Assembly (NCBI GenBank): GCA_903902855.1
Contig: CAIUWK010000095.1
Span: 5,887 to 69,886 of the forward strand
Source of the DNA: an uncultured Geobacter sp.
GTDB lineage: Bacteria > Desulfobacterota > Desulfuromonadia > Geobacterales > CAIOGM01
Reading direction: 5' to 3'
Length of the DNA stretch: 64,000 nt
Of the stretch, positions 491 through 23,643 are shown one piece after another (the stretch's first letter is position 1; every line of letters begins with the position of its first letter). The notes under the pieces were generated by a model. The model did not search any database and had not been told where the DNA came from. It saw only the letters and a program-made list of their open reading frames with translations. The position numbers and the translations under genes were made by a program.

Positions 491-736
491 CGTGTATGCA
501 GTTGTCTGTTGTTATGCAATCTAACGTGATGATACTAAATTGAAGATGAGGCACTTGTCAAGGAGTATTATGGCAGGTATTGCAGTAACTATTTTTTGTG
601 AACCTGCCAAATTTGTGTGGTTCTTGGATGGTAGGAGGCCTATTTTCTACGGCAGGCAGTAATCTCAATGAGCAAACACAATCATCATTAGTCTTCCAAG
701 CATGCACCTGTAGAGTAGGGAGTTGATTAACAGAAA

Positions 737-768
737 AAGAACGACGGGCAGAATGCCCCGTCGTTCTT
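737..768 (-). terminator. Rho-independent terminator after cassette A
   Basis: A 12-bp perfect stem (737-748 paired with 757-768) is followed on the minus strand by a U-run (RC of cagaaaaa, 731-738). It lies about 30 nt downstream of the stop at 800. Confidence 0.7.
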
Positions 769-799
769 CAGTGACGGCACAACAGGCGAGCGCCTGCTG

Positions 800-3241
800 C
801 TACCTGAGCGGGAAATTGATATAAATCACATGGTTTCCGCCAACGTCGTCATATTCGAGCTTCCATTTGAGCTGGTAATCTTTCACAACATTACGCCGGT
901 CAATACGGAATGAGAAAGTGTCACTCGAGGTTTTGACGGCACCACCTGCAATAGAACCGAAACTTGCCACGCCATCCACTGGAGTGACCGTCGCCGGCCA
1001 CGAGTCCAATGTCATCTTTACGTTGTTGGCCGGTGTGTTGCCCCGGTTGCGCATGTCAAACTTGTAGGTGTATTCATAGATAAACGTATTGATCCGTTTT
1101 TCACTGACCTTCACATAGTTCTCGGGCCAGAGGTCGACGACGAAAACCTGGGTATAGGTCTGGGTTGTGGCGGTCAGGCCTTTATTGTCCGTTACCCGGA
1201 GGCCAATCTGACCTGAATACGGGGTCGCCCAGATGTGCTGGACCGTCGAACTCGAACCGCTGCTGGTCTCAAAGGTGCCGTTCCCGTCCAAATCCCACTC
1301 GTACAAAGCAATGGAACCACCGGGATTCGGGGAGAATGAGGCCGATCCGTTGAAGGTGATGGGTGACCCGATCACGCCGTTATACGGACCGCCCGCATTG
1401 GCGACCGGCGCTACCCAAGTAGTGCTGATGGTGACCGGAACGACTACTTCTCCGATTTCCTGGGGTGACGAGTTATCGCCCACCGTTAATTTTGCGTTGA
1501 CGGTATAATCTGCTGGTGGACTTTTTTCCAGGTATCCGGCATAGGAGATCGGCCCGGAAACGGGGAAGTTGCCACTCAGTATGGTGGTGCCGTCACCCTT
1601 CACATCGATCCAATACTTGGTCAAACTCTTCGCGGGATCCTGATGATAGGAGCCGCTGATATCGAATTTGACCGGCTTGAGTGCCGGAGTGGGGTTGGGG
1701 CTGACCGTCATGACGGCGATGGGACGGAAGGTGAAGACGTTCCTCGTCAGTATCTCGACCGCCCAAGCCGTGTCAAACGTATAATAATACGTCAGATAAA
1801 ATGAACCATCACCATTCTGTATTGATAGAAGATAGGTGCTGTATTCATCGTACCAGTCCCAGCCGCCAAGCAACTGGATCTCCGAATAGGTGTCACCGAT
1901 TCCGTCTCCGTTCGTGTCGACCTTCGCAATGCGGGCTCCTTTGGCTACGGCATACATTGAGTACATGTTGCCGGTTCCATGCTCCTGTGTGCCTAGATAG
2001 TTGCCTGCGGCAACGATGCGATCAAATGTTTTGACCTTTCCTTCGAACGACATCTGGCAGATTCCGGAAGCGGTGAGCGCTGCACCCGTTCCCAGCCCCG
2101 TATACCCGAGAGCCCCATAGTACCATTGACCCTCATAGCCGGTGAAGTACTGGCTGTAATTGATCCAGTTAAAGTTATCAGTCTTGATTTTCGGGTGAAT
2201 GGCCACGCCCCAGCCGAACTCTGCCGCTTCCATCCCGATCGAGGGCCATTGACAGGCGGAGTTATCAGGCCAATTCTGAGGGCCGTAACGCCAGCCGCCT
2301 AAACCAGGGTACTGCGCATAGTCAGCGTAATCAACCATGTCTTCAACCAGCTTCCGGTAGGTCTTGCCGATCACGCCTGTTGGTCCCGTGGTCGCAACGA
2401 GTTCGGGCGCACCGCTTAATTTGTCACCGGCGCCCACCAGCGCCATCATGTACATGCCGATCTTGTAGGGCCCGCGGTAATCATACATGGGATAGTAATT
2501 GTCCGCCACATACTCACCATTACCATTGCTGTCATACTGGGGATCAACTCCGACAGCCATAAGTGTCGATATTGCGTAATCGAGACCACGGTGAACGGTA
2601 TCGGCGTAGATTCGTCCTTTCTCCCATATCGCCCTGTCGGCCGCATTAACGACGCCGTCGCCGTTCTGATCCTTCGTAACCGGCTTATGGCCTCTGTTCT
2701 CGAAGGCCAGGACTGCGGCTGCTGTCTCCGCCCCGGCTGAAGAATAATAATTCCAGTAATATATTGAACCATCCGAGTATTGAGAGAGATAAAGATATTT
2801 CAGTCCTCTTTCGATGGCAAGCTGTATCCTGGCATCCTTGTCCACGACAGGTTTCACGTAGATACGGACCGTGGCGCTGTTCAGCAGGCCGTTGCCGTCT
2901 GTCACGGTCAGGGTTGCGTCATAGACGCCGGCGGCTGTGTAGGCATAGTTGACCGAGATGTTTCTGGCATCGGTCACTGTGCCGTTGACCACGGGGGACC
3001 CATCACCGAAGTTCCAGGAATAGGTGCCAGTTGTGGAATCTCCCCACTTCACGTTGCCCCAGACATCAAGGGAGTTACCAACCCAGGTGTAGGCGCTCTG
3101 CGCGGTGTCTCCGCTCGGCATGACATTGACACTTGGACCGTTGGCGAAAATAGCAAGAGCAATCGATGACCATCCCATCAGACATAACAGCCACAGGACA
3201 AAAACCGATCTGAGGCTCCATCTTTGTACCCAGTATTTCAT
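800..3241 (-). CDS. Secreted multidomain protein: signal peptide, PKD domain, alpha/alpha-toroid (prenyltransferase/squalene-cyclase-repeat-like) domain, Ig-like/PKD domains, C-terminal beta-sandwich (copy A)
   Basis: The ORF spans 800-3295. The start is chosen at MKYWVQRW (3241) because it has a GGAG SD. The protein has a hydrophobic signal sequence and PKD motifs WNFGDGS and YEWDLDGNG. The central region has repeated QxxDGS/GGW-type motifs (QYSDGSIYYW, LGGWRYG, QNGDGSFY) and a DxNGDGVVNAAD calcium-loop-like motif. It is a paralogue of 9329-11842. Confidence 0.7.
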   Translation of the reverse strand: MKYWVQRWSLRSVFVLWLLCLMGWSSIALAIFANGPSVNVMPSGDTAQSAYTWVGNSLDVWGNVKWGDSTTGTYSWNFGDGSPVVNGTVTDARNISVNYAYTAAGVYDATLTVTDGNGLLNSATVRIYVKPVVDKDARIQLAIERGLKYLYLSQYSDGSIYYWNYYSSAGAETAAAVLAFENRGHKPVTKDQNGDGVVNAADRAIWEKGRIYADTVHRGLDYAISTLMAVGVDPQYDSNGNGEYVADNYYPMYDYRGPYKIGMYMMALVGAGDKLSGAPELVATTGPTGVIGKTYRKLVEDMVDYADYAQYPGLGGWRYGPQNWPDNSACQWPSIGMEAAEFGWGVAIHPKIKTDNFNWINYSQYFTGYEGQWYYGALGYTGLGTGAALTASGICQMSFEGKVKTFDRIVAAGNYLGTQEHGTGNMYSMYAVAKGARIAKVDTNGDGIGDTYSEIQLLGGWDWYDEYSTYLLSIQNGDGSFYLTYYYTFDTAWAVEILTRNVFTFRPIAVMTVSPNPTPALKPVKFDISGSYHQDPAKSLTKYWIDVKGDGTTILSGNFPVSGPISYAGYLEKSPPADYTVNAKLTVGDNSSPQEIGEVVVPVTISTTWVAPVANAGGPYNGVIGSPITFNGSASFSPNPGGSIALYEWDLDGNGTFETSSGSSSTVQHIWATPYSGQIGLRVTDNKGLTATTQTYTQVFVVDLWPENYVKVSEKRINTFIYEYTYKFDMRNRGNTPANNVKMTLDSWPATVTPVDGVASFGSIAGGAVKTSSDTFSFRIDRRNVVKDYQLKWKLEYDDVGGNHVIYINFPLR

Positions 3242-3324
3242 GACTATCTCCTTATGGGTAATGCAGTTAGATGCCGACACGAAATCGACTCGCATCCGTG
3301 TGCCACGCTAAACCTACGGATCTA

Positions 3325-3909
3325 TTATCCCATTTTACGCCTGATGAAAATTAAACCACCAAGACCGGCCCCCAGCAGTAGGAACGTGGACGGCTCCGGC
3401 ACGGAGGAGCCTCCCTGCAATTCGGTATAGCCCGTATCAGTGGTGCTGTAATCGCCGGTCGCTTGATTGATGGTGCCGACCTGATAATAGAGGTGGTCAA
3501 AGGTTCCCCCCGGTTGCATGGTAAATGATGTAGTGAAGCCGCCGAAGCTGCCACCGGAGACAATACCGCTGCCGATCGCATCGGAGTTGTAGATCCCGGG
3601 GTTGTCGATGGCCGACGGCTCAAAGGAGTAGGAGAACCATCCTGAGGGTAAACTGACGCCATTGGAATCGGGGATAAAATTCGAGAACGACTCTGTTTGT
3701 GTAAAATTCAGACCGTCACTCGTCTGGCCGAAGTAGATCGATAGCCACTGGATCGGGTCAGTCAGTGTGTCGTTCTGTACCGTGAAGTTTAGCGTGTACG
3801 CAGGGGGCATGGAACCGGCAACCGAATACCGCAGATGTGTTGCCGAAGCCGTGGTAGCCATCCCCACCAAAATCATACCTGCCAGCATTATTATCATGAA
3901 CTTTTTCAT
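3325..3909 (-). CDS. PEP-CTERM sorting-domain protein (copy A)
   Basis: The C-terminus is VPEPSTFLLLGAGLGGLIFIRRKMG (PEP motif, TM helix, basic tail). The N-terminal signal MKKFMIIMLAGMILVGMATTASA follows a GGGGGTGAGAGG SD. A sigma-54 promoter lies upstream. Confidence 0.85.
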   Translation of the reverse strand: MKKFMIIMLAGMILVGMATTASATHLRYSVAGSMPPAYTLNFTVQNDTLTDPIQWLSIYFGQTSDGLNFTQTESFSNFIPDSNGVSLPSGWFSYSFEPSAIDNPGIYNSDAIGSGIVSGGSFGGFTTSFTMQPGGTFDHLYYQVGTINQATGDYSTTDTGYTELQGGSSVPEPSTFLLLGAGLGGLIFIRRKMG

Positions 3910-3998
3910 CCTCTCACCCCCTTGTAGCACTCGTAGAGTTCGTTTTCCTAACATTGCCGAATCCTCCCTTCATGAAGATTAATGTGCACAAACACACC

Positions 3999-4014
3999 TG
4001 CAACATATGTGCCG
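3999..4014 (-). promoter_or_regulatory. Sigma-54 (-24/-12) promoter of PEP-CTERM gene A
   Basis: The minus-strand read is cGGCAC-atatg-TTGCA. This has the GG-N10-GC spacing of the TGGCAC-N5-TTGCW consensus. It sits about 90 nt upstream of the start at 3909. Confidence 0.6.
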
Positions 4015-4161
4015 TTTAATTTGCTCGCATCTAATCTACAGCCGACTGCGGCAGCTCCCCGCTGAAGTAAGAAACCATCCTTCTTGAGGGTACTTCACTA
4101 CGGCTTGCATCCCGGTGACTGATAAAAATGACGACGTTGTGCTCTTCTCGGGCATGAGCGA

Positions 4162-4211
4162 GTGTCGACTTTCTTTACACTTCTTCCCAGTGACTGTCGA
4201 AATTCTTTACA
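4162..4211 (-). promoter_or_regulatory. Tandem direct-repeat candidate enhancer (UAS) for the sigma-54 promoter, copy A
   Basis: GTGTCGACTTTCTTTACA (4162-4179) and CTGTCGAAATTCTTTACA (4194-4211) are 32 bp apart start to start. They lie about 150-210 bp upstream of the -24/-12 element. The same pair is present in copy B. Confidence 0.4.
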
Positions 4212-4515
4212 ATAAATCTCCCCGAATTAATTGCTGGACTGCTAGGATCAAAACACACCCGCAGGCGCCGGCAACCAGCCAAACAGGTGAGATCTGAACA
4301 GCCATGACGGCTCCATCCAGGAGAGAAATCCCGGCAAGCATGAGCAGCACGAGGGGCACGGCATAGGGTGTGCCCCTCGTGTTTTCATGACGCGCCACAG
4401 CGTAACAACACACGGCCCAAAGGGATCGGGCGGGAAGGACGTTTCAGACGATCTATTCCTGCATCGCAGATATCGTTAAGACACATGCCGCCAGAATAAT
4501 TGAGCGAAAGAGACA
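4207..4515 (-). pseudogene. eboC: eboC (UbiA prenyltransferase) relic with N-terminus and central ~280 bp deleted
   Basis: 4207-4400 aligns to the 3' end of 12910-13100 (VARHENTRGTPYAVPLV...ISPVWL vs VARHENRRSKPYAVPLV...ISPVWL). 4400-4515 aligns to B 13380-13500 (YSGGMCLNDICDAGIDRLKRPSRPIP). No start codon remains. Confidence 0.8.
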
Positions 4516-4693
4516 CATGGGGAAGCCACCGGTCCAGAAGCGTGGTAAGTCTGGTCGTGTAATCTGCCCGTTCTCGCCGCCGCAGCGCGGCAGGAGCAAA
4601 TGCAGATTTGATGGAAGGAAGATGATCCCGAAGGGGGGCAAAGGTTGCATCCCAGCTTTCACCTGGATGTATGTTGGTGCAGGAGGTGATTAC
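4516..4693 (-). pseudogene. eboE: eboE relic (N-terminal fragments only); eboF entirely deleted at the eboC/eboE junction
   Basis: 4516-4570 aligns to B about 15730-15785. 4570-4693 aligns to B about 15960-16081 (ITSCTNIHPGESW). The start-codon position reads GTA instead of GTG. About 2.2 kb (the rest of eboE, all of eboF, and the eboC N-terminus) is missing relative to copy B. Confidence 0.75.
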
Positions 4694-5128
4694 ACGGCAC
4701 TGAATTTGGAATACTGACCGAAGAAGGTCGCCGGATTGTCATAAATAACCTTCCGGATCAGCTCGATTCCGTATCGTTCGAGGATGTCGACGGTCCGGGC
4801 AGGGCTGCATTTGAAGTTCCGGTAGAGGGTCACCCCGGCCCGGAAGCCCCGCGCCAGATCTCCCCGATGGTATGCTCTTCGGCATGGTCGATGAGAACCC
4901 GTTCCGCTCTGCAGCCAGGGCGATCTGCAACTCCAGCACCGTGACCTCGTTCCGTCTGTTCTTGTTGATGACGATCTCTCCCACCCCCAACACCGTGGGA
5001 CGGTCCAAGTAGTCGGGCATGATTGCCAGTACTTCCCGTGCCAGGGCAAGGTCTTTGGCCTGCTTGGGGTTCTGGCAGATCCAGCAGTAATGCCGGATGC
5101 CGAACTTTGCGGCCTAGGCCGGCTCCCC
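4690..5128 (-). pseudogene. eboB: eboB (TatD-family hydrolase) relic with several internal deletions, frameshifts and an in-frame stop
   Basis: Pieces in different frames match 16078-16881: GVTLYRNFKCSPARTVDILERYGIE, LDRPTVLGVGEIVINKNRRNEVTVLELQIALAAER and AKFGIRHYCWICQNPK. Gaps of about 100 and about 110 bp exist relative to B, there is a TAG at about 5115, and the N-terminal metal-binding HxH region is lost. Confidence 0.8.
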
Positions 5129-5232
5129 CACGATGAAAGGAATGCGGCGACCTCCAGAATACGCGCCCGGTTCTCAAGAAACGAGCCTTCCAGTATCTCT
5201 TGTGCCGATAGCTGACTTTTCAGACAGTCCAT
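5129..5232 (-). pseudogene. eboA: eboA-position gene relic (first ~32 codons only, fused to the eboB relic)
   Basis: MDCLKSQLSAQEILEGSFLENRARILEVAAF matches the N-terminus of 16868-17182 and then breaks off. The track ORF 4690-5316 is a chimera of these relics. Confidence 0.7.
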
Positions 5233-6391
5233 GACTCTCTCCTCTTCTGCTCTCCTTGGCAGCCAGGGTTGAGATGCACTCCTGATACACGTCAACATCA
5301 ATCTCATGAACCTCAATCCTCTTCCCGACCCCCTTCAAGAGCGGTATGGAGAGGACTCCCCCCAGATGCTCCCGGAACTCCTGGAGCGCCCGGGCTATGT
5401 CGATCCACCGAAGTGCCGTGTCATAGAGGGTGAAGCCCACCTCTTCCAGCAGCGTCAGTATCCGGTGCAGATCCAGGTCACTTATCAGCGACCGCCGGTG
5501 GGAGTAGAGGGAGTCGAGGGCAATCCCGATGGCTACGGCCTCACCATGCCTGAGCTCGCCATGGGTCAACTCTTCCAGCTTGTGGGCCGTCCAGTGACCG
5601 AAGTCCAACGGCCGTGACGTCCCGAATTCGAAGGGGTCGCCGCAGCTGCGGATATGCTCCAGATGAAGTTCGGCACAGCTGACGATCAACCGCTCCATGG
5701 CCGGTGGAGAAAAAACCGACAGTTCCCGGCGCTGGGCATAGAGGCGCTGGAAAAAAGGGCGATCCTTGATCAGGGCAACCTTGATCGCCTCGGCAATACC
5801 GGCCCGCTGGTCGCGTTCCGTAAGGGTTCGGAGAAAATCAAAGTCATTGATTACGGCGCAAGGGGGGGCAAAAGTCCCGAGAAAATTCTTCCGGCCAAAA
5901 GCGTTAACGCCGTTCTTGACCCCAACGCCGGCGTCATTCTGGGCCAACACCGTAGTCGGCAACCGGATCAGCCGAATGCCGCGATGGGCGGTGGCAGCCG
6001 CATACCCGACCACATCCAGCACTGCCCCACCTCCCATGGCAATGATAAAGGAATGACGGCAGAGCCCCTCCTTCTCCACCAGAGCGTGAAGCCGCTCGAC
6101 TTCCTGTGGCTTATTCTTGCACCCTTCGCCCCCCGGTAAAACCAGGGGGTGAGTGACGAATTCAAGGAGCCCCTGATGCAACGAGGCAAACCGTTTGATT
6201 TTTTCCAAGAGTCCAGTCGTCAGCCGCGCCACCTCCGAATCGATGACCAAGGCGATCCTCACAGGTCTCTCGCCGTAGGAGGAGAGAAGCTCAGGCAGGA
6301 CCGGGTTCCCTTCGCCGAACAGATCACGGGTGAAGAAGACCGGATATGAATAAGAAAGCGTGAATTCCTGCCGGATGCTCTCCATGATCAC
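5174..6391 (-). CDS. eboD: 3-dehydroquinate-synthase-family sugar-phosphate cyclase, EboD-type (copy A, intact)
   Basis: This 405-aa ORF carries DHQS-family motifs (GGGAVLDVVGYAAATAHRGIRLIRLPTT, NDAGVGVKNG, HWTAHKLE, HGEAVAIG). It is collinear with 17124-18335 at high identity (about 85% by eye). Confidence 0.8.
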   Translation of the reverse strand: MIMESIRQEFTLSYSYPVFFTRDLFGEGNPVLPELLSSYGERPVRIALVIDSEVARLTTGLLEKIKRFASLHQGLLEFVTHPLVLPGGEGCKNKPQEVERLHALVEKEGLCRHSFIIAMGGGAVLDVVGYAAATAHRGIRLIRLPTTVLAQNDAGVGVKNGVNAFGRKNFLGTFAPPCAVINDFDFLRTLTERDQRAGIAEAIKVALIKDRPFFQRLYAQRRELSVFSPPAMERLIVSCAELHLEHIRSCGDPFEFGTSRPLDFGHWTAHKLEELTHGELRHGEAVAIGIALDSLYSHRRSLISDLDLHRILTLLEEVGFTLYDTALRWIDIARALQEFREHLGGVLSIPLLKGVGKRIEVHEIDVDVYQECISTLAAKESRRGESHGLSEKSAIGTRDTGRLVS

Positions 6392-6394
6392 CCC

Positions 6395-7573
6395 CTATAA
6401 GCCCCGGGAGATGATCTCCAGGGTGATGACCGCGTACGCGGTGACGAGCCCAGGATCCTTCTCCCACCAGCGGCCGTTGGCATTGGCCCAGAAGCCATCG
6501 CCGTTCTGCAGGTCGATCAGCTTCTTTGCCAGATCCCTGCGCCAGTTGACGCTCTTCCCACTCTTGAGGGTCAGGTTGTCCACCCCGTAGACGCTGAGGG
6601 CCTTGGCCATGGTGTGGTAGTAATAGTAGAGGCCGTCTTTTCCCATGCCGGGATTTTCGTCAAGGGTATAGTGCCGACGTAGCCAGTCGTAGACCGCCTT
6701 GACCCGGGGATCGTTCCTATCGAGTTGGGCGTAGATGTAGCTCAGCAGTCCGGCATAGCTCATGCTGCCGTATGATCTGAGGGCCACCTTGCCATCAGGA
6801 AGTTTCACCTCGCCCGCCTTGCTCTCATCCGGGAAATAGACGAAGCCACCCTTGTTGTCAGGATCGTCGCTGGCCCACTTCTGATCATTGGAACCGGGGA
6901 GGTTCTGGGTCCGGGAGAGAAACTGGACTGCGGCCTTCCAGTTGAGATCCTTCGCCTCGGCGTCACCGGCAACATCACTTTTGAGGTAGCGGCTGTAATG
7001 GAGCGCTTCCAGGGCGAAGGTCGTATTGGCCAGATCCGAATGTTTGTAGGTACCGCCGTAGCCGATGCCGCCGTCCAGGGGATCGTCTCCCATCCCTTTT
7101 TCCCCGAAATCGTCCTGCAGGCCGATGATATATTTTCGTGCATTCTTGATGACCGGCTGGTATTCCGGCCGGTTGGCCATCAGGAGGGCCATCATGGAGA
7201 TGGAAGTATTATAGTTGGTCAGCTCCTTGCCGTAGATACCTCCGTCAGGTTTGACGTTTGTGAGGAGGTAACCGTATCCTTTGGTTATAGCCTGCTCGTA
7301 TTTCCTCTTATAGAAACCCGACTGGTCCCCCTGGAACCCGGTGAGAACCAGAGCGGTGAGGGCCGGGTACTCCTGCTGTCCCCAGTACCCCTCCGGCTTC
7401 TGCCTTGCAGCCAGCCAAGTCAGCCCCTTGCCGATGGCGTTCTCCACCTCCAGCTTAAGGGAAACGTCGGATTTGGAGCGAGCAACGACCTTCTCCGCGG
7501 CAATAGCCTGGGTCGAGAGTGCCAGCCCCATGACTACCGCGCAGAAAATTTTCCGATTCAGTGACAATTTCAT
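6395..7573 (-). CDS. Secreted prenyltransferase/squalene-cyclase-repeat (alpha/alpha toroid) protein (copy A)
   Basis: The start is at MKLSLN (7573) with a GGAGGA SD, and the signal peptide ends AIA-AE. Toroid-type repeats are present (QKPEGYWG, VKPDGGIYG, DPLDGGIGYGG, NKGGFVYF, QNGDGFWANANGRWWE). It is a paralogue of 18345-19526. Confidence 0.7.
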   Translation of the reverse strand: MKLSLNRKIFCAVVMGLALSTQAIAAEKVVARSKSDVSLKLEVENAIGKGLTWLAARQKPEGYWGQQEYPALTALVLTGFQGDQSGFYKRKYEQAITKGYGYLLTNVKPDGGIYGKELTNYNTSISMMALLMANRPEYQPVIKNARKYIIGLQDDFGEKGMGDDPLDGGIGYGGTYKHSDLANTTFALEALHYSRYLKSDVAGDAEAKDLNWKAAVQFLSRTQNLPGSNDQKWASDDPDNKGGFVYFPDESKAGEVKLPDGKVALRSYGSMSYAGLLSYIYAQLDRNDPRVKAVYDWLRRHYTLDENPGMGKDGLYYYYHTMAKALSVYGVDNLTLKSGKSVNWRRDLAKKLIDLQNGDGFWANANGRWWEKDPGLVTAYAVITLEIISRGL

Positions 7574-7590
7574 GGTTCCTCCACGCAAAG

Positions 7591-8364
7591 TTAATGTTTA
7601 GGTAGTATCGTAACGGTAACCGCACTCCCCACCGGCGGCACGGTGTCTTCCTTAACGAACCATATCTTGTCGCTCTCTCCACCGGCGGAGGCATTGTCAA
7701 TCAAAGCTATCGGATCGTGATAAAGTGCGATTATTGATCCTTCCATCTGCGCCAGGAACTTGCCGTTCCCGACAACGGAGCCCGTATAGATCCACGAGAG
7801 AGTGGATATCTCACACGTCTTTTTATCAATTTTTTTGCAGATCCAGCGTTCATAGTCGTCCGCAGCGGCCTTGCCGTCGGCGCCGACACGGGTGACAAGA
7901 ATCCTTACCGAGTCACCTTTGGGCGTAGAGGGGTCTCCCTGATAGGCAAGAGGCTTGTCGGTCCCTTCATACCCCAGGAGCAGAAAGGCTACCTGAAGCG
8001 GGTAGGGCTCCACGGTGGTGCGCAGGAGACTCTCATGGGTCTTTCCAGCGTTTCGTACCAGGAGATACTCCAGGAGTCCCTTCCCCATATTGACCACGGC
8101 AGGGAATGAAATCGATCGTTCCATTTTGTTGATCAGGATATCTCCTATCCGGAATACGCCCGGAGAGACCTTTTCTATTGCCGGTGGCTGTTGTGCCATG
8201 AATGGCGGTGGGGGGAGCAACGGGCGAGGTGGTGGCGCATTCTTCAAACCAGGTGGGAGTGGATTCTGTACCGCGGGAGGGGCTTCAGCCGTAGCGTTGG
8301 TTGCAACAACCGAGCAGGCGAGCATCAGATACAATCCGATTCGTGTGATACTGCTTCGCTTCAT
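7591..8364 (-). CDS. Secreted protein of unknown function with Pro-rich linker (copy A); possibly YdjY-domain-like (unverified recollection)
   Basis: The protein has a signal peptide, a PPPRPLLPPPPF linker and a conserved core (VSPGVFRIGD...LLEYLLV...GKTHESLLRT...IALYHDP...DKIWF). It is a paralogue of 19544-20323. Its stop is 18 nt before the downstream start. Confidence 0.6.
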   Translation of the reverse strand: MKRSSITRIGLYLMLACSVVATNATAEAPPAVQNPLPPGLKNAPPPRPLLPPPPFMAQQPPAIEKVSPGVFRIGDILINKMERSISFPAVVNMGKGLLEYLLVRNAGKTHESLLRTTVEPYPLQVAFLLLGYEGTDKPLAYQGDPSTPKGDSVRILVTRVGADGKAAADDYERWICKKIDKKTCEISTLSWIYTGSVVGNGKFLAQMEGSIIALYHDPIALIDNASAGGESDKIWFVKEDTVPPVGSAVTVTILPKH

Positions 8365-8456
8365 GAGGTTATGCCTCCTTTCATCTATCCATACCCGCCG
8401 GAACTATCCGCTGTAAAGGAATACGGTTCAACCGGGGCGACGTTACCCTCTACCAC

Positions 8457-9032
8457 CTAGAACGAGTACGTATATACCAGCTCAAAACCGCACGTGCGAT
8501 CATCCACGAATTTCTCGAAGTACTTCACCCCGACTTCGTGCTGTTTACTGATCTTGTATGCTGCACCGAATTTCCAGGTATTTGTATTGTAATTGTTGTT
8601 ACGGTCAAAGGCGTCACGATGCCTCATGCTGACGTTCAGATCAAAGGTGTTGTCAACGACTGTCCAGACCAGTCCCGGTTCGATGGTGTAGTAGGGACAG
8701 TTCTTTTGTTGGGTAAATTTCTCGCCGATGCCCAAGCGGAGGGTCCCCTTGACCGGTCCGAACAGTTTCTGATCATAACGGACACGCGCTTCCAGCTTTG
8801 TTTCCATATCCTTGGTCAGGGAGTCCTGCTCTCCCTCAAACTTCAAGTCAACCTTGAAGCCGTTATCGAATTTATAGCCGGGGGCAATCGAAAAGGCATT
8901 TATCGAATCATGAGGCTGATTCTTGTTGTTCTCATACTCATACTCGAACGTCATAAACCCACCTGCTCCAAAGGCAGGCACACTGCTCAACAGACACAAG
9001 ACCGTAACTAAAATTTTTCCAAAATTCCTCAT
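8457..9032 (-). CDS. Small outer-membrane beta-barrel protein (present only in copy A)
   Basis: The start is at MRNFGK (9032) after an AAGGAGGA SD. The protein has a signal peptide, alternating amphipathic beta-strand pattern, and the C-terminal YTYSF with terminal Phe typical of OM barrels. Confidence 0.6.
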   Translation of the reverse strand: MRNFGKILVTVLCLLSSVPAFGAGGFMTFEYEYENNKNQPHDSINAFSIAPGYKFDNGFKVDLKFEGEQDSLTKDMETKLEARVRYDQKLFGPVKGTLRLGIGEKFTQQKNCPYYTIEPGLVWTVVDNTFDLNVSMRHRDAFDRNNNYNTNTWKFGAAYKISKQHEVGVKYFEKFVDDRTCGFELVYTYSF

Positions 9033-9135
9033 ACATTCCTCCTTTTCCACATATAGTTCGGATAGTTACCCTGTTATCGCTCCACCTTTTGGCCGATGAC
9101 TCCCTTTTATATTAATAAAAATTTTAATGTAGACA

Positions 9136-9165
9136 TTAATATCACATGAGAGATGCACGTGTCAA
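9136..9165 (-). promoter_or_regulatory. Candidate sigma-70 promoter for cassette A
   Basis: The minus-strand read is TTGACA (9165-9160), an 18-nt spacer, then TATTAA (9141-9136). It lies in an AT-rich gap about 105 nt upstream of 9032 and just downstream of the copy-B terminator. Confidence 0.35.
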
Positions 9166-9262
9166 GCAGTTCTAATATGATATGGAGTGGGGGGGGTAAT
9201 TGATGGCGGAATATTATCAATCTGGAAATTGAACTTTCGTGTTCTTTAAAAAAGGCAAACAT

Positions 9263-9299
9263 AAAAGAACGGCGGGGCAATGAGCCCCGCCGTTCTTTT
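9263..9299 (-). terminator. Strong (bidirectional-looking) Rho-independent terminator after cassette B
   Basis: A 16-bp perfect stem, AAAAGAACGGCGGGGC (9263-9278) paired with GCCCCGCCGTTCTTTT (9284-9299), encloses a 5-nt loop. T-runs occur on both strands. It lies 30 nt downstream of the stop at 9329. Confidence 0.8.
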
Positions 9300-9328
9300 A
9301 TTGCGTTAAAAAATGCGAGTGACTGCTG

Positions 9329-11842
9329 CTACCTGATCGGGAAGTCTACGTATGACACATGAGTCCCGCCCGCGTCATCATATTCGAGTTTCCATCTGAT
9401 CTGTAAATCACTCACAGGATAGCGCCGGTCGATTTGGTATGAGAAGGTATCGATGGACGTCTTGACCGAAACGCTTGGTATGGAACCGAAGTTGACATTG
9501 CCGTCCACCACGCGGACCGGTGCCGGCCAGGACGACAGGGTTGATTTCACGTTATTTGCCGGAGCGTTCCCCCTGTTGCGCATATCGAATTTGTAGGTGT
9601 ATTCGTAGACGAACGTGCTAACTCGCCGTTCGCTAATTTTTACATAATGCTCGGGCCAGAGGTCTACTACGAAAACCTGAGCATTAGCCTGGGAAGTGGC
9701 GATAAGGCCGTCGTTGTCGGTAACCTTCAGGCCGATGACTCCTTGATACGGGGTCAACCAGGTTTTCTGGACTGTGGGGCTTGAGCCGCTGTTAGTTTCA
9801 TAGGTGCCATTCCCGTCAAGGTCCCACTCATACTTGACGATGGAGCTACCGAGGTTCGGCGAGTAGGAGGCAGAACCGTTGAAGGTAATCGGCGTTCCTA
9901 TCACGCCATTGTACGGACCGCCCGCATTAGCGACCGGCGGCACCTTGGTGGTGGTGATGGTGACCGGAATAATTGTTTCCGCAAATTCCTGAGGTGATGA
10001 GTTGTCGCTCACTCGGAGTTTTGCGTTGATCGTATAGTCTGCCGGAGGCGACTTTTCCGGATATCCGGTATAGACGATCGGGCCGGAAACCGGGAAGCTT
10101 CCGGTCAGATCATAGACGCCATCCCCGTCCACATCGATCCACCATTTGGAGAGAGACTTGGTGGGATCCTGATGGTAAGAGGCACGGATGTCGAAATTAA
10201 CCGGCGCAGGATGGAGCGCCGTGCTCGCCGGTGTGGGGTTGGGGGAGGCAGTCATTATGGCGACGGGGCGCAAGGTGAAGACGTTCCTGGTCAGGATCTC
10301 GACACTAAACGAGGTGTCAAGAACATACTGAGTGTAGCCCCAAGCGTACCATGAGCCATCAGCAGCCTGGTTGTCGATGAGCCAACTGCTGTATTCGTCG
10401 TACCAATCCCAGCCTGGAGCTGATCCCAGGAGTTGAATTTCCGAGTAGACGCCGCCAAGTTTAGCGATGCGGGCACCCTTCGTTATCGAATACATGTAGT
10501 ACGTATTACCGGTGCCGCGTTCGCCGGGTACGAGTCGGAGAAAGTTGCCTGCCCTTGTAATATTCGGATCATTTTTTTGTTTGCCCTGAAATGAAAGCTG
10601 GCATATCCCGGCTCCGGTCAAGGCGGCATAGCCGCCGGTCCCTGTACATGAAGGACAGGTGTAGCCAAAGAGGCCATCATAAACATCACCGGAAACATAT
10701 TGGCTGTAATTGGTCCAGTTGATGTTGTCGTTCTTGATTTTCGCCCGGATCGGGACTCCCCAGATGAACTCCGCAGCCTCCATGCCGATGGCGGGCCACT
10801 GGCAGGCGGAGTTATCCGGGAAATAGCCGGGGCCATACCGCCAACCACCATAATTGGGGTCGGTGTACTGGGCATAGTCGGCATAGTCGACCATGTCCCC
10901 GACGAGATCGCGGTAGGTTCTGCCGATCACACCGGCAGGCCCGGTGGTGGCAATCAGGTTAGGGGCACCTTCGGGGTTGGGCGTAATACCATCCGGTTTT
11001 AAGGCTGGAGCATTCTCACCCGCGCCGACCAAGGCAGTCATAAACATCCCTATTTTGTAGGGTGAACGGGAATCAGACCAGTACGGTGAGTAGCTGTCGA
11101 CAACCATGAGGCCGTTCGGCACAGCCGGATGATTGTCATAGGCAGGAGAGGTAACACTGACGGCTACGAGGTTTGAAATGGCGGCATCAAGCCCCTTGTG
11201 TACTGTCTCGGCATAGATGCGCCCTTTCTCCCAGATGGCCCGGTCGGCCGCATCAACGACGCCATCGCCGTTCAGATCCTTGGTGCAGGGCTTGTGACCC
11301 CGGTTTTCGAAGGCGAGGACTGCTGAAGCAGTCTCGGCGCCCCAGGAGTTGTAGCTGTTGACATAATAGATTTCGCCACCGGCGCCCTGCCGGAGATAGA
11401 GCCATTTCAGCCCTTTCTCGATGGCCAGTTCGATCCGGGCATCCTTGTCAACGACAGTTTTTACGTAAATATGGACCGTGGCGCTGTCCGAAAGACCGTT
11501 GCCGTCAGTCACGGTCAGGGTTGCATCGACGGGGCCCCCAGCCGAGTAGGTGTGATATGCAGAGATGTATTTGGCGTTGGTAACCGCTCCGGAGACCACG
11601 GGGGTCCCATCGCCAAAGTTCCAGATGTACGTACCTGACGCGGAGTCTCCCCACTTCACATTACCCCAGACGTCAAGCGAGTTCCCCACCCAGGTATAGG
11701 AACTCTGAACAGTGTTCCCGCTCGGCATGACATTTATGCTTGGACCGGTCAGCGCAAAAGCAGTCGAACTCCAGCCCATCATGCACAACATCCACAGGGC
11801 AAGAAGAGCCCTGATGCCCCAACTTTGTTTCCGGTAGTTCAT
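9329..11842 (-). CDS. Secreted multidomain PKD / alpha-alpha-toroid / PKD protein (copy B)
   Basis: This 837-aa ORF has an AAGGAGG SD and a signal peptide. It carries WNFGDGT and YEWDLDGNG PKD motifs and central toroid-like repeats (YGGWRYG, NQAADGSWY). It is collinear with 800-3241. Confidence 0.7.
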   Translation of the reverse strand: MNYRKQSWGIRALLALWMLCMMGWSSTAFALTGPSINVMPSGNTVQSSYTWVGNSLDVWGNVKWGDSASGTYIWNFGDGTPVVSGAVTNAKYISAYHTYSAGGPVDATLTVTDGNGLSDSATVHIYVKTVVDKDARIELAIEKGLKWLYLRQGAGGEIYYVNSYNSWGAETASAVLAFENRGHKPCTKDLNGDGVVDAADRAIWEKGRIYAETVHKGLDAAISNLVAVSVTSPAYDNHPAVPNGLMVVDSYSPYWSDSRSPYKIGMFMTALVGAGENAPALKPDGITPNPEGAPNLIATTGPAGVIGRTYRDLVGDMVDYADYAQYTDPNYGGWRYGPGYFPDNSACQWPAIGMEAAEFIWGVPIRAKIKNDNINWTNYSQYVSGDVYDGLFGYTCPSCTGTGGYAALTGAGICQLSFQGKQKNDPNITRAGNFLRLVPGERGTGNTYYMYSITKGARIAKLGGVYSEIQLLGSAPGWDWYDEYSSWLIDNQAADGSWYAWGYTQYVLDTSFSVEILTRNVFTLRPVAIMTASPNPTPASTALHPAPVNFDIRASYHQDPTKSLSKWWIDVDGDGVYDLTGSFPVSGPIVYTGYPEKSPPADYTINAKLRVSDNSSPQEFAETIIPVTITTTKVPPVANAGGPYNGVIGTPITFNGSASYSPNLGSSIVKYEWDLDGNGTYETNSGSSPTVQKTWLTPYQGVIGLKVTDNDGLIATSQANAQVFVVDLWPEHYVKISERRVSTFVYEYTYKFDMRNRGNAPANNVKSTLSSWPAPVRVVDGNVNFGSIPSVSVKTSIDTFSYQIDRRYPVSDLQIRWKLEYDDAGGTHVSYVDFPIR

Positions 11843-11925
11843 GGTGACCTCCTTATGGTATCTGATAATACGTGAGGCTAAAGAAAACCGACTAGACCCT
11901 CACGGTCTCCCGTTCGAGTTCGCTG

Positions 11926-12507
11926 TCAGCTTTTTTTCCTTTTTAAGAAGGCAAGGCCGGCGAGACCACCTCCCAGCAGCAGGATCGTGGAGGGCTCGGG
12001 AACGCCTGAAGGCTGCGAATATTGCGTGTACCCGCTGTCAAGGAGATTATACCCTCCCGCTTGGTCGAAGTTGCCCACAAGGTAGTAGAGATGATCTAAG
12101 GTTGCGCCTTGCTGCATGTCGAATGATACCGTAAAACCGCTGAGGCTGCTCCCGGGGGCAACGCCACTGCCGGCGGCATCGGAGTTAAAAATACCAGGAT
12201 TATCGATGGCGCTTGGCTGGAAGGAATAGGAAAACCACCCCACGGGACTGTTGACGCCCACATCGTCAGGAACAAAATTGGAAAATTCCGCGGTTTGCGT
12301 AAAGTTTAGACCGTCCACCGTCTGTCCGAAATAGACCGACAGCCACTGGATCGGATCCGCCAGGGTGTCATTCTCGATGGTGTAGTTGATCGTATACCCA
12401 GTCCCTGAGCCCGAAGGGTTTTGGTACTTCACTACTGTTGCCGATACTGTCGATACCATCCCCACAAGGAGACTACCTGCCAGCAATGCTAAGATTAATT
12501 TTTTCAT
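11926..12507 (-). CDS. PEP-CTERM sorting-domain protein (copy B)
   Basis: The C-terminus is VPEPSTILLLGGGLAGLAFLKRKKS. The start is at MKKLILALL (12507) after an AGGAGGTGAGAGG SD. A sigma-54 promoter lies upstream. Confidence 0.85.
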   Translation of the reverse strand: MKKLILALLAGSLLVGMVSTVSATVVKYQNPSGSGTGYTINYTIENDTLADPIQWLSVYFGQTVDGLNFTQTAEFSNFVPDDVGVNSPVGWFSYSFQPSAIDNPGIFNSDAAGSGVAPGSSLSGFTVSFDMQQGATLDHLYYLVGNFDQAGGYNLLDSGYTQYSQPSGVPEPSTILLLGGGLAGLAFLKRKKS

Positions 12508-12599
12508 CCTCTCACCTCCTAGTTGTGATCTTCGCACTCGCTTCGAAACGGCGGCGAGTATCCATTAATGCCTAAATTTTACTGATAGCGAAACGTAAA

Positions 12600-12615
12600 T
12601 GCAATACATATGCCA
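12600..12615 (-). promoter_or_regulatory. Sigma-54 (-24/-12) promoter of PEP-CTERM gene B
   Basis: The minus-strand read is TGGCAT-atgta-TTGCA, a near-perfect match to TGGCAC-N5-TTGCW. It sits about 93 nt upstream of the start at 12507. Confidence 0.65.
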
Positions 12616-12774
12616 GTTAATGCGCTTGAGTCGGCAGAAGGATCAATAACAATAAACCAATACCCGACCTCTCCCAACACAAGTAAAAAGGCGTTCTACA
12701 AAGAGAAAAGGTGTATCCGTATCCGGAGTATCAGAGGAGTAAACTTACAGGCAACTTTCCGGCGGCACTGGCGT

Positions 12775-12824
12775 GTGTCGGCTTTCTTTACACCTTACGG
12801 TGACTAGTGTCGGATTTCTTTACA
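12775..12824 (-). promoter_or_regulatory. Tandem direct-repeat candidate enhancer (UAS), copy B
   Basis: GTGTCGGCTTTCTTTACA (12775-12792) and GTGTCGGATTTCTTTACA (12807-12824) match at 17 of 18 positions and are 32 bp apart. They lie about 160-210 bp upstream of the sigma-54 element. Confidence 0.45.
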
Positions 12825-12909
12825 GTAGCGTTCACATGCAGAGGAGAAGAAGGAGGAGATGCTGTGGTAACAGTCGGCAGGGTACGGAGACCACCGTGGA
12901 GGAACGCGC

Positions 12910-13638
12910 TCAATCTCCCCGGACAAAGCGCTGACCAGCCAGGGTCAGAACGGCACCGCCGATCCCGGCCGCCAACCAGACGGGAGAGATCAGAGCGGCC
13001 ATGACGACGCCGTCCAGCAGAGAGATCCCGGCCAGAAGTATCGGCACCAGAGGCACCGCGTAGGGCTTGCTCCTCCTGTTTTCATGCCGCGCCACCGCGC
13101 TGATCAGGAGGACATAGCCGAACTGGAGGCATCCGGCGAGTATGACGGAGCTGCCGACCGTTCCGGATACCGCCACCGCCACGACCACGAAGACGGTCAT
13201 CCGGCAGCCGGCCATGAGCAGGATACTGAAATATCGGGACTGATGCAGGGTATCATAGGCGATGATGAGCAGGAGCAGTATCACGCCCGCCAGGAGCGCC
13301 AAGGGGTGAGGAACAACGACAAGTAGGGAGAGGGCCGTCGAAAACAGCACAATTGTAAAAACCCGGGCACCACGGGTCGACACCCGCCCTGAAGGGATAG
13401 GGCGTGAGGGACGCTTCAACCGGTCGACTCCGGCGTCGCAAAGGTCATTGAAGCACATTCCACCGGAGTAGAAGAGCGACAGCGAGAGCGCAAGGACAAC
13501 ATAGTGCCGCCAGGAAAATCCTCCCCCGGCAAGAAGGAGCGCCGCAAGGACGTTGGTCCAGACCGTCGGGAGGTTGCTGACCCGACAGAGCTCCAGGTAT
13601 GACTTGATGAGGGTGCGGGGCACTTGGTTCACTCGCAA
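12910..13638 (-). CDS. eboC: UbiA-family prenyltransferase, EboC-type
   Basis: The protein is polytopic and hydrophobic, with UbiA motifs (LELCRVSNLPTVWTNVL, NDLCDAGVDRLKRPSRPIPSGR). The start is TTG at 13638 or GTG at 13632, overlapping the eboF stop. Confidence 0.75.
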   Translation of the reverse strand: MRVNQVPRTLIKSYLELCRVSNLPTVWTNVLAALLLAGGGFSWRHYVVLALSLSLFYSGGMCFNDLCDAGVDRLKRPSRPIPSGRVSTRGARVFTIVLFSTALSLLVVVPHPLALLAGVILLLLIIAYDTLHQSRYFSILLMAGCRMTVFVVVAVAVSGTVGSSVILAGCLQFGYVLLISAVARHENRRSKPYAVPLVPILLAGISLLDGVVMAALISPVWLAAGIGGAVLTLAGQRFVRGD

Positions 13639-14996
13639 AAGATATGCTTCAGCAGCAGGTCACGAACCTGCTCTGCCTCGATGAGGGGAGCTTCAAGGAG
13701 TTCCGGTTCGGTGGTCATGAAAAGCGGCCCCTCGTCGGCTCGATCGGTGACCCGTCCGTGAGACCCCTTGACGAGGGAGGCGTCCAAGGGAATCACCTCC
13801 ATGAGGTAGCGAAAGCCGAGGGCTTTTTTCAGCAGGGTCCAGGCGATCTTCGCCTTGGGCGCCGGAAGCTTCGGATCCAGAAATAGTTCACAGGGATCGT
13901 ACCCCGGTTTGGCGTGGATGTTGACAGTACGGGCGTAATCCGGCGCCCGCGAGTCGTCGTTCCAGAAGTAGTAGGTAAACCAGCTCTCCCCACCGGCAAT
14001 GAGCAGCAGTTCCCCGCTTCGCTCATGGTCGAGACCGTACCTGCGCTTCCCCTCCGCGCCCAGTACCTGTTCTACTCCCGGCACTCCGGAAAAAAGATGT
14101 TGCACCGCCGGAATATCGTTTCGATTTTTCACATAGATGTGGGCGATCTGGTGGTCGGCCACGGCAAAGGCACGGCTGGTTCCAGGGTCCAGGTATTCCC
14201 GCCCCAGATCGACCTTGAGGCTAAGGAATCCGGCATCGCGCAGAATCCTGTTCGGATGGAGCGGGCGCGAAACCGGGGTAATGCCGTATTCGGAGAGGAC
14301 GATGACCCGACAACCGCGATTCCGGAAAAAGTCGATGAGTTTGCCGCAAAGGGTGTCGATCTCACTCAGGTCGCGGTCAAGATCCCCCTCCGGCCCGACC
14401 TTCTGGAGGATGTAATCCAGATGGGGAAGGTAGACAAGCTGGAGGGTTGGTTGATGCTCCTCCTCTATGGCCATGGCCGCCTTACCGATCCAGTCGCTGG
14501 CGGTGATGGAGGTGGCCGGTCCCCAGAACTGGAAGAGCGGAAACTGCCCGAACTCCCGGTTGAACCTCTCCCTCAGTTCCGGAGGGATACTGTAGCAGTC
14601 CGGCAGTTTCTTCCCGTCAGCGCAATAGAGCGGGCGGGGAGTCACCGCCCACTCCAGATCCGTTACCATGTTGTACCACCAGAAGGAGTTGGCGCAGGTA
14701 AACGCTGCGTCCCGCTGCCGCGCACTCTGCCAGATTTTTTCCGACTGGACGAGCCGGTTTGACTGGCGCCAGAACATGACCTCACCCAGATCCCGGAAAT
14801 ACCAGCCGTTACCGACGATGCCATGTTCCCTCGGCAGCTTGCCGGTGAGATAGGTCGTCTGCATGGTGCAGGTCACGGCCGGCGTGATGGCCCTGATATC
14901 GGCGCTCCCCTCAATAAGTTTATTCAGGTTGGGGGTCTTGGCGCCGAGGAGTGAGCGGGTCAGCCCCACCACGTTAAGGACAACAGTTCGTTTCAT
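13629..14996 (-). CDS. eboF: Alkaline-phosphatase-superfamily nucleotide pyrophosphatase/phosphodiesterase, EboF-type
   Basis: This 455-aa protein begins MKRTVVLNVVGLT...ITPAVTCTMQTTYLTGKLPREHGIVGNGW, the type I phosphodiesterase N-terminal catalytic-Thr region. Its start overlaps the eboE stop by 4 nt. Confidence 0.7.
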   Translation of the reverse strand: MKRTVVLNVVGLTRSLLGAKTPNLNKLIEGSADIRAITPAVTCTMQTTYLTGKLPREHGIVGNGWYFRDLGEVMFWRQSNRLVQSEKIWQSARQRDAAFTCANSFWWYNMVTDLEWAVTPRPLYCADGKKLPDCYSIPPELRERFNREFGQFPLFQFWGPATSITASDWIGKAAMAIEEEHQPTLQLVYLPHLDYILQKVGPEGDLDRDLSEIDTLCGKLIDFFRNRGCRVIVLSEYGITPVSRPLHPNRILRDAGFLSLKVDLGREYLDPGTSRAFAVADHQIAHIYVKNRNDIPAVQHLFSGVPGVEQVLGAEGKRRYGLDHERSGELLLIAGGESWFTYYFWNDDSRAPDYARTVNIHAKPGYDPCELFLDPKLPAPKAKIAWTLLKKALGFRYLMEVIPLDASLVKGSHGRVTDRADEGPLFMTTEPELLEAPLIEAEQVRDLLLKHIFCE

Positions 14997-18335: not shown

Positions 18336-18344
18336 GTCAGCCGC

Positions 18345-19526: not shown

Positions 19527-19543
19527 AGGTTCTCCTTCTCGAT

Positions 19544-23642: not shown

Positions 23643-23643
23643 C

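Follow-up and report, generated by a model that had tools for sequence, protein, structure and literature searches.

The window considered here, a stretch of 64,000 nucleotides from an uncultured Geobacter sp. (a member of the Geobacteraceae, judged by the source names of its closest homologues and loci), holds two copies, A and B, of a gene cluster of the ebo type, ebo (eboA-F) being the 'eustigmatophyte-bacterial operon' (PMC5133447) that is now linked to biosynthesis of the meroterpenoid thallusin (bioRxiv 10.64898/2026.05.21.724671). Copy B is intact. Copy A has lost the enzyme genes of its middle to a series of deletions, and the genes on both sides of the gap, most of them for exported proteins, are still there. 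The explanation of the whole that we favour, and regard as probable though by no means settled, is that copy A is a diverged second cluster whose enzymes were lost while its exported-protein genes were kept under selection, with copy B helping in trans. Position numbers are those of the window, and both copies and the genes related to them are all on its minus strand. The features are these:

800-9050, minus strand: copy A as a whole, in the order barrel, YdjY, toroid, EboD, a 1.2-kb relic, PEP-CTERM, PKD
9138-9165, minus strand: sigma-70-like promoter candidate 5' of the barrel gene (TTGACA, 16 nt, TG, GATATT; 10 of 12 consensus matches), by consensus only
8457-9032, minus strand: barrel-like gene, 191 aa, candidate outer-membrane beta-barrel
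7591-8364, minus strand: YdjY-domain protein of copy A, 257 aa
6395-7573, minus strand: putative secreted alpha/alpha-toroid protein of copy A, 392 aa, with terpenoid cyclase/prenyltransferase-like repeats
5174-6391, minus strand: eboD of copy A, of the DHQS-like sugar-phosphate cyclase family (NF004852)
3955-5173, minus strand: relic of a 104-aa open reading frame (ORF), eboB (TatD-like), eboE and eboC; eboF fully gone
3325-3954, minus strand: PEP-CTERM protein of copy A, 209 aa, intact
800-3295, minus strand: PKD-domain protein of copy A, 831 aa, intact
736-769, minus strand: terminator-like hairpin closing copy A, homologous to that of copy B
9329-20323, minus strand: copy B, the intact reference cluster of ten genes
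19544-20323, minus strand: YdjY of copy B
18345-19526, minus strand: toroid of copy B, 393 aa
17124-18335, minus strand: eboD of copy B
16868-17182, minus strand: 104-aa ORF of copy B, overlapping the 3' end of eboD
16078-16881, minus strand: eboB of copy B
14993-16081, minus strand: eboE of copy B
13629-14996, minus strand: eboF of copy B
12910-13638, minus strand: eboC of copy B
11926-12537, minus strand: PEP-CTERM protein of copy B
9329-11842, minus strand: PKD protein of copy B, 837 aa
9261-9301, minus strand: terminator-like hairpin closing copy B, 18-bp stem and T-run

A first-pass annotation of this DNA had singled out eboD, the 392-aa toroid protein and a 257-aa proline-rich protein (the YdjY protein of the list) as full-length genes on the minus strand, and so they are. 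It had also described the neighbouring ebo genes as destroyed, which the relic with its seven deletions and a stop bears out, the barrel gene as absent from copy B, of which the window indeed holds no paralogue, and a promoter-like site (9165-9138, consensus matches only) after the strong hairpin of copy B (9301-9261), which is present. Its retained set of three genes was too small: PEP-CTERM and PKD beyond the relic are also intact, making five, or six with the barrel gene.

The relic and the age of the decay

The 1.2 kb of relic hold colinear fragments of eboB, with an internal stop, of eboE and of eboC, and both eboF and most of eboE are gone. Against copy B there are seven gaps, with net losses of 362, 100, 99, 177, 2239, 275 and 84 bp, which are read as deletions in A because copy B has the structure found in all relatives; the internal stop is the only one. 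Of the 434 residues encoded by eboE of copy B, the relic still matches 49-120 and 169-189, eboC survives as two fragments, and eboB is broken by deletions as well as by the stop. The chance that seven random deletions would all land in the central 41.7% of copy A is small (p = 0.002).

How long has the middle of copy A been out of use? The 245 alignable relic codons differ from those of copy B by 0.15, 0.14 and 0.44 at positions 1, 2 and 3, and the ratio of non-synonymous to synonymous divergence (dN/dS) is 0.118, so that most of the divergence of the relic arose while the genes were still constrained. When a relative's cluster (L002 or L005) is added as the third sequence, the relic codons give a dN/dS of 0.13-0.16 for branch A vs 0.06-0.08 for branch B, and the modest level to which the rise is confined argues that the decay came late. 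Taking 0.07 as the constrained value, a rough reckoning would have about 7-10%, and at most 20%, of branch A spent as a pseudogene. By the testimony of these codons the decay is, then, recent. The identical relic is present in each of seven same-species assemblies (99.5-99.97% identical), and the decay thus predates the split of the sampled strains.

Selection on what was kept

For the intact genes the pairwise dN/dS between the copies, which the first-pass annotation had proposed to calculate, is 0.07-0.20, far from 1. On branch A the values for toroid and eboD are 0.11-0.13 (interval 0.08-0.17), the same as or below those of branch B. At positions that are at least 95% conserved among 83 toroid relatives, the toroid of copy A keeps 83 of 83; YdjY keeps all 18 of its family-conserved positions and EboD 52 of 53, the sole change, I355V, being conservative. 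Differences among the strains of the species tell a similar story, with 19 synonymous and 14 non-synonymous in the six copy-A genes (ratio of non-synonymous to synonymous polymorphism per site, pN/pS, 0.23; p = 2.8e-5 vs neutrality) and six of each in the trio of YdjY, toroid and eboD (p = 0.047). In simulations of neutral drift over 0.05 substitutions per site, the probability of remaining stop-free is 0.004 for the trio and 5.5e-7 for all six genes; over 0.02 substitutions per site it is 0.10 and 0.004. From these comparisons the toroid, YdjY, PEP-CTERM and PKD proteins of copy A appear to be functional paralogues under purifying selection.

The position of EboD in copy A is different. Its gene encodes 405 aa from a GTG, or 403 aa from the ATG at 6385 as called in public assemblies; the product scores 562.5 bits on NF004852 (cut-off 333), and the Pfam families DHQ_synthase and DHQS_C match in both copies. 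However, the protein cluster to which it belongs has two short members, P0251 (272 aa) and P0250 (74 aa), from the same-species assemblies ERZ1426632 and ERZ1426817. P0251 is reproduced exactly by deletion of one C at window position 5624, and P0250 by a one-base insertion at 6206-6208, neither site being a long homopolymer. On the P0251 contig the distance from the start of eboD to the start of the PEP-CTERM gene is one base short. The P0250 contig has the normal spacing together with the downstream spurious ORFs of the P0251 contig, and is therefore read as carrying the insertion and the deletion together, as two successive frameshifts. Barrel, YdjY, toroid, PEP-CTERM and PKD are all of normal length on both contigs. 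Taken alone, eboD of copy A has four synonymous and three non-synonymous strain differences (p = 0.07, not significant), and its stop-free survival under neutrality would be 0.16-0.47. If the frameshifts are real, a sub-lineage has done without EboD-A for long enough to pick up a second frameshift, and EboD-A would therefore be redundant with EboD-B and not an obligate third member of a set with YdjY and the toroid. Probably, then, it is redundant and dispensable; though this genome and most strains have it intact and conserved, it looks to be the least secure of the retained genes. Of the first-pass view that the trio is full-length and under purifying selection, the low dN/dS, the kept conserved residues and the open frames of this genome stand, and eboD, as the weakest of the three, is where it gives way.

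The YdjY-toroid pair in other genomes

Is the company that these genes keep accidental? All the cluster proteins were mapped onto 80 loci from species-representative genomes, gathered with the toroid alignment. YdjY lies directly upstream of the toroid gene in 63 of the 77 loci with enough sequence, and the adjacency extends over Desulfuromonadota, Betaproteobacteria, Nitrospirota, Thermodesulfobacteriota and Verrucomicrobiota. EboD is directly downstream of the toroid in 26 of 71. Among the 19 YdjY-toroid-EboD loci with at least 7.5 kb of downstream sequence, 14 have eboB/E/F/C, and five are without eboE/F/C within 10 kb, so that sets of this kind, for which the first-pass annotation had suggested looking, do exist elsewhere. 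In all five the EboD passes NF004852. Those of Geobacter sp. OR-1 and Citrifermentans bremense still have eboB and the 104-aa ORF; that of a Hydrogenophilaceae metagenome-assembled genome (MAG) has only a TatD-like gene after EboD, followed by ribonucleotide reductase genes; and two from Verrucomicrobiota MAGs show no further ebo gene. One of these two, in which YdjY, toroid and EboD are followed by a small ORF and further on by PKD proteins, is much like what survives of copy A.

A second architecture emerged from clustering of the neighbouring ORFs in 12 loci of Thermodesulfobacteriota type (L029-L031, L034, L036-L039, L041, L043, L079, L081). There myo-inositol-1-phosphate synthase (Ino1) is followed by YdjY, toroid, a TIM barrel, an eboB-like gene, another TIM barrel, an eboC-like and an eboF-like gene, and EboD is missing. 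In 47 of the 82 loci, which span several phyla, EboD or Ino1 is encoded no more than 7 kb from the toroid gene. The two cyclitol-forming enzymes are unrelated, and finding either of them beside YdjY-toroid is good evidence that pair and enzyme are functionally linked. In most Verrucomicrobiota loci, however, no ebo-type gene accompanies the pair, which is therefore a unit in its own right. Gene neighbourhoods thus support the toroid and YdjY proteins being real partners of a cyclitol synthase and not chance neighbours. The partnership with EboD proposed in the first-pass annotation gains from the adjacency and from the cyclitol-forming enzymes, and loses some of its exclusiveness in that the pair so often does without any ebo gene. 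Overall that earlier interpretation is partly supported, in its selective retention and its genuine partnership, but the retained unit is made up of the exported-protein genes.

Divergence and origin of copy A

Amino-acid identity between the copies is 80.6% for EboD, 85-86% for the toroid (91% without its signal peptide), 60% for YdjY, 61% for PEP-CTERM and 70% for PKD; the 85-90% estimated earlier by eye for EboD and toroid was too high for the first. At the DNA level 5137-8189 aligns with 17087-20142 at 78% identity, and 735-3925 with 9263-12523 at 68%. Synonymous divergence is about 0.7-0.9 for toroid and eboD, and is saturated in the other genes. Close relatives have a single cluster at the same site, between a Bat operon and a Cys/Met-metabolism gene, with the order YdjY, toroid, EboD, 104-aa ORF, EboB, EboE, EboF, EboC, PEP-CTERM, PKD. 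For every gene copy B is nearer to the relatives L002 and L005 than to copy A: EboD 85 and 84% vs 81% to A, YdjY 77-84% vs 60%, PKD 82% vs 70%; EboB of copy B is 91-92% identical to theirs. Copy A therefore diverged before those species split and is not a fresh duplicate of copy B. It is either an old tandem duplicate that was lost elsewhere or an acquisition from a sister lineage.

One toroid protein, P0006, encoded on a contig of 1782 bp, is identical to that of copy A for about 300 residues and then has a much more distant C-terminus; the switch points to a chimeric assembly or else to recombination between alleles. Assembly is also at issue in L096, a contig of the same species, where bases 1-390 (window 16000-16388) show about 60 mismatches per 390 bases in eboB/eboE of copy B, near the level of A-B divergence. 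A burst of 58 single-nucleotide polymorphisms in eboB of copy B was excluded as belonging to a chimeric contig end, because all of them came from those first 390 bases. The start of L096 is probably such an end, caused by the repeat; recombination with the relic is a possible source.

Alternative explanations

Could the whole of copy A be drifting, its flanks simply not yet hit since the decay is so recent? The relic does still resemble recently constrained sequence, to judge by its dN/dS against copy B, and at 0.005 substitutions per site six genes would stay stop-free with a probability of 0.24. However, the seven deletions and the stop all fall within the central 42%, the strain differences in the copy-A genes are skewed towards synonymous ones, the toroid has kept every one of its 83 conserved positions, and branch-A dN/dS is raised on the relic codons only, not in the intact genes. 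Such drift is already disfavoured, and we consider it very improbable. Selective retention being preferred, what exactly was retained? One proposal is an obligate module in which EboD-A, toroid-A and YdjY-A are equally protected and EboD-A is non-redundant, for instance in making a cyclitol for the copy-A exported proteins. EboD-A is full length with nearly all of its conserved positions, and its branch-A dN/dS of 0.12 is not raised; YdjY-toroid-EboD occurs without any other nearby ebo gene in the Verrucomicrobiota loci L049 and L065, and similar sets have only the TatD-like gene (L017) or eboB and the 104-aa ORF (L010, L016), while the Ino1-type loci put another cyclitol-forming enzyme beside the same pair. 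Nevertheless we find this module unlikely, given the frameshifted eboD-A of two same-species assemblies, one apparently hit twice and both with the other copy-A genes at normal length, the unconvincing strain test and neutral survival of that gene, and an intact EboD-B 11 kb away; nor does the module take in the two retained downstream genes.

The proposal that competes over origin, and not over retention, has copy A as a cluster of a sister lineage that was transferred horizontally and placed beside the resident cluster by homologous recombination, with the barrel gene included. Copy A branches outside the group of copy B, L002 and L005; in L002 and L003 PKD is followed by the Cys/Met-metabolism gene with no second copy in between (L005 ends within eboC); the closest relatives of YdjY-A, 72% identical, are from other species, as against 60% for copy B; and the rare barrel gene, with seven homologues, sits at the junction, where GC falls to 40-47% vs 58% for the window. 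Transfer is nonetheless somewhat unlikely in our estimation. PKD-A shares its type with PKD-B and the PKD of L002 (70%), whereas L001, L006 and L086 carry a type that is 32% identical, which fits an origin within the lineage; the GC content at third codon positions (GC3) of copy-A genes equals that of copy B; relatives could easily lose one of two tandem copies by recombination; and no donor was found. Under either origin the retention result is the same.

Several considerations weigh against selective retention with help from copy B, the reading that we prefer. The age of the decay is imprecise, with a bootstrap range of 0.08-0.26 for relic branch-A dN/dS and a probability of 0.83-0.96 that A exceeds B, and the argument from stop-free survival depends on that age: at the age of the strain split (about 0.005 substitutions per site) survival is unsurprising for the trio (0.55), as it is for the six genes. 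The strain data, from the seven same-species assemblies, amount to two haplotype groups only. The frameshift alleles of eboD-A are known at the level of assemblies, not from reads. The promoter of copy A is a consensus match only, accompanied by a Shine-Dalgarno sequence at the barrel gene. The five partner loci were viewed within 10 kb, and the same genomes may hold eboE/F/C farther away. The structural model of the toroid is poor, and that of YdjY is without a solved structural match.

The individual proteins

The toroid of copy A matches PF13243 (SQHop_cyclase_C) weakly, at 32.8 bits against a cut-off of 26.1, and has two QW-like motifs; inspection of the sequences found no DxDD motif in the toroid of either copy. 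It does not fit a class II cyclase of the squalene-hopene type, both for want of DxDD and on its scores with TIGR01507 (30.6 vs 431 bits) and TIGR01787 (34.9 vs 322.7 bits). An AlphaFold2 model from an alignment of 13 sequences has a predicted template modelling (TM) score of 0.69 and a mean predicted local distance difference test score (pLDDT) of 65.6, with a poor middle third. Foldseek against the PDB matches it to small squalene-hopene cyclases, MstE and drimenyl diphosphate synthase (E from 3e-4 to 1e-3, TM about 0.5), and equally well to AprG, GH76 glycosidases and alpha2-macroglobulin thioester domains, matches that are too weak for function. A profile search of PDB sequences gave similarity to squalene-hopene cyclase (PDB 3sqc) at the level of repeats only. 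Like YdjY, the toroid opens with what reads as a signal peptide, and is predicted to be periplasmic on that account.

In YdjY of copy A the signal peptide is followed by a proline-rich linker (15 of the 41 residues 26-66 are proline) and a beta-rich YdjY domain. The domain matches NF040466 at 119.7 bits in A and 136.6 in B, with E. coli YdjY at 146.2 and a cut-off of 50, and all the YdjY homologues carry PF27149 among precomputed matches. Compared directly with E. coli YdjY the profile gives nothing significant (E = 0.34), and the family link rests on NF040466. No solved structural relative of the domain was found.

The barrel protein falls just under the cut-offs of Porin_4 (25.6 vs 27 bits) and OMP_b-brl (24.2 vs 28.7). 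Its gene has AGGAGG before the ATG, and the product, as read from the sequence, a signal-like N-terminus and the C-terminal residues ...YTYSF. Of the loci compared only copy A has the gene, at its head; no related locus and no other part of the window holds it, and among 5.8 billion proteins there are only seven homologues, one of which, P0243, is found in unrelated contexts. Transfer of the gene was also judged from its low GC (47%), which is not good evidence, its GC3 being normal.

On PF07589 (cut-off 20.7 bits) the PEP-CTERM proteins score 28.5 bits in copy A and 29.2 in copy B. The idea that the central region of the PKD protein is a second toroid related to the 392-aa protein was dropped, there being no significant similarity (E at least 0.09). 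In L001, L006 and L086 the PKD proteins (and, where a match is detectable, the PEP-CTERM proteins) are far removed from those of the window, with the 32% identity given above for PKD against 75-90% for the enzymes, which suggests cassette-like replacement of these surface proteins among close relatives.

Among the enzymes of copy B, EboE, a TIM barrel resembling xylose isomerase, passes NF035939 (422.3 bits, cut-off 250), and EboC, with 78.5 bits on PF01040, above its cut-off, is clearly of the UbiA family, although it is short (237-242 aa vs a model of 292 positions) and reaches 96.7 bits on NF035940 where 250 is the cut-off. EboF scores 190 bits on PF01663 (the alkaline phosphatase/phosphodiesterase family). 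EboB is borderline for TatD_DNase (26.6 vs 27 bits), and its gene is conserved in 33 loci. No ORF tested in the cluster has an NCBIfam or Pfam match to EboA. The 104-aa ORF, which lies conserved between eboD and eboB in 21 loci and has no Pfam or NCBIfam match, may stand in for it.

Relation to known systems

One proposal for the ebo genes is that they carry a precursor of scytonemin into the periplasm (PMC6282210). More recently, in the thallusin work, eboB, C, E and F were each found essential, EboC was assigned as a farnesyltransferase, and the terpene cyclase was not identified; eboA is absent from some phyla (bioRxiv 10.64898/2026.05.21.724671). Copy B resembles these clusters in having EboD, EboE, a TatD-like EboB, an EboF of the phosphodiesterase family and a UbiA-like candidate EboC, and copy A in keeping EboD and relics of B, E and C. 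The cluster differs from them in the order D-(104-aa ORF)-B-E-F-C, in having no recognisable EboA, and in being headed by secreted YdjY and toroid proteins and ending in PEP-CTERM and PKD, none of which figures in the ebo papers searched. The essential core of that preprint, eboB, C, E and F, is exactly what copy A has lost. In ebo of the Actinomycetota type ino1-3 stand in for eboD (bioRxiv 10.64898/2026.05.21.724671), and our Ino1 loci likewise swap the cyclitol-forming enzyme; unlike that type they also carry YdjY-toroid beside the cyclase gene and belong to other phyla, and the window has none.

With E. coli ydjX-ydjY-ydjZ there is the likeness that E. coli YdjY passes NF040466, as do the proline-rich proteins of copies A and B. 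Unlike the genes of the window, ydjY of E. coli K-12 (L097, 1834116-1834793) lies between two DedA-family genes, ydjX and ydjZ, and has no toroid or ebo neighbour. DedA proteins are lipid and polyprenyl-phosphate flippases (PMC12893004, PMC10193950), and by analogy that neighbourhood possibly links YdjY to the handling of lipid or polyprenyl phosphate, though it is only a lead. The class II cyclases (squalene-hopene cyclase, the single-domain cyclase MstE of meroterpenoids, drimenyl diphosphate synthase) share with the toroid the weak repeat match and QW-like motifs; the toroid differs in lacking DxDD, in having a signal peptide, and in its 30 bits on a hopene-cyclase model with a cut-off of 431. 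As for the decay itself, it is ordinary genome evolution, of a piece with the differential decay of duplicated operons: the most conserved genes, those of enzymes, were lost, and the most diverged (60-70% between A and B), those of exported proteins, were kept. No paper connecting either YdjY or the toroid with ebo, or Geobacter with ebo, came up in the searchable literature, and the YdjY-toroid (with PEP-CTERM/PKD) architecture of ebo-type clusters appears to be undescribed there.

Surroundings of the two copies

Copy B is directly downstream of a Bat-type operon ending in a BatD-like gene (a weak match, BatD being the only one of these scanned for in the window), and vWA-like ORFs together with that weak match occupy 20425-24648 on the minus strand. 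In the close relatives surveyed (among L001-L008 and L086) the cluster follows an operon of the type MoxR, DUF58, vWA (BatA/BatB-like), TPR, BatD. The gap of 100 bp before copy B holds no promoter-like site, and copy B may thus be co-transcribed with the Bat-type operon. Nor was any convincing further promoter or terminator seen inside the relic, 5' of PEP-CTERM or 5' of copy B. The spacer of 296 bp between copy B and the barrel gene (9033-9328) has 39.5% GC vs 58% for the window, and three strain differences, at 9155, 9134 and 9133, lie in it near the promoter-like site.

A possible history, and what it may mean

Copy A would, then, be an older-diverged second copy of the ten-gene cluster that was a working cluster for most of its history. 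In roughly the last tenth of its branch, a figure that we infer, the cytoplasmic and membrane enzyme genes, redundant with those of copy B, would have been removed by seven deletions, with selection keeping the exported-protein genes YdjY, toroid, PEP-CTERM and PKD, which would be the least redundant because they are the most diverged from copy B. The retained genes would now be preceded by a promoter-like site of their own and by a barrel gene that is a new addition. YdjY and the toroid may form an exported two-protein unit. Its target or partner in the envelope would be a product of the cytoplasm, derived from a cyclitol and probably prenylated, and copy B would supply EboB/E/F/C in trans.

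A bolder suggestion, which we rate as a long shot, is that YdjY-toroid is the missing envelope-side half of cyclitol/meroterpenoid pathways, the toroid being a periplasmic non-DxDD binder or cycliser of isoprenoids that, with YdjY, receives the exported product. If true, it would explain two things at once, the part ascribed to ebo in 'transport to the periplasm' and the lack of an identified terpene cyclase for products of the thallusin type, and copy A would be a natural minimal version of such a system, with a cyclitol synthase and the exported pair in place and the enzymes provided in trans. The ebo genes are widespread, and two steps of their pathway are left to explain, how the intermediate reaches the periplasm and what cyclises the terpenoid part. 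The locus is in effect a natural deletion experiment, in which eboB/C/E/F were lost from one copy and YdjY-toroid, PEP-CTERM and PKD were kept, and as such it dissects which neighbours of the ebo enzymes can stand alone. The recurrence of YdjY-toroid beside EboD or Ino1 across phyla makes the pair a concrete, testable candidate for the accessory envelope-side components, and marks two protein families, that of the YdjY domain and that of the toroid, for study.

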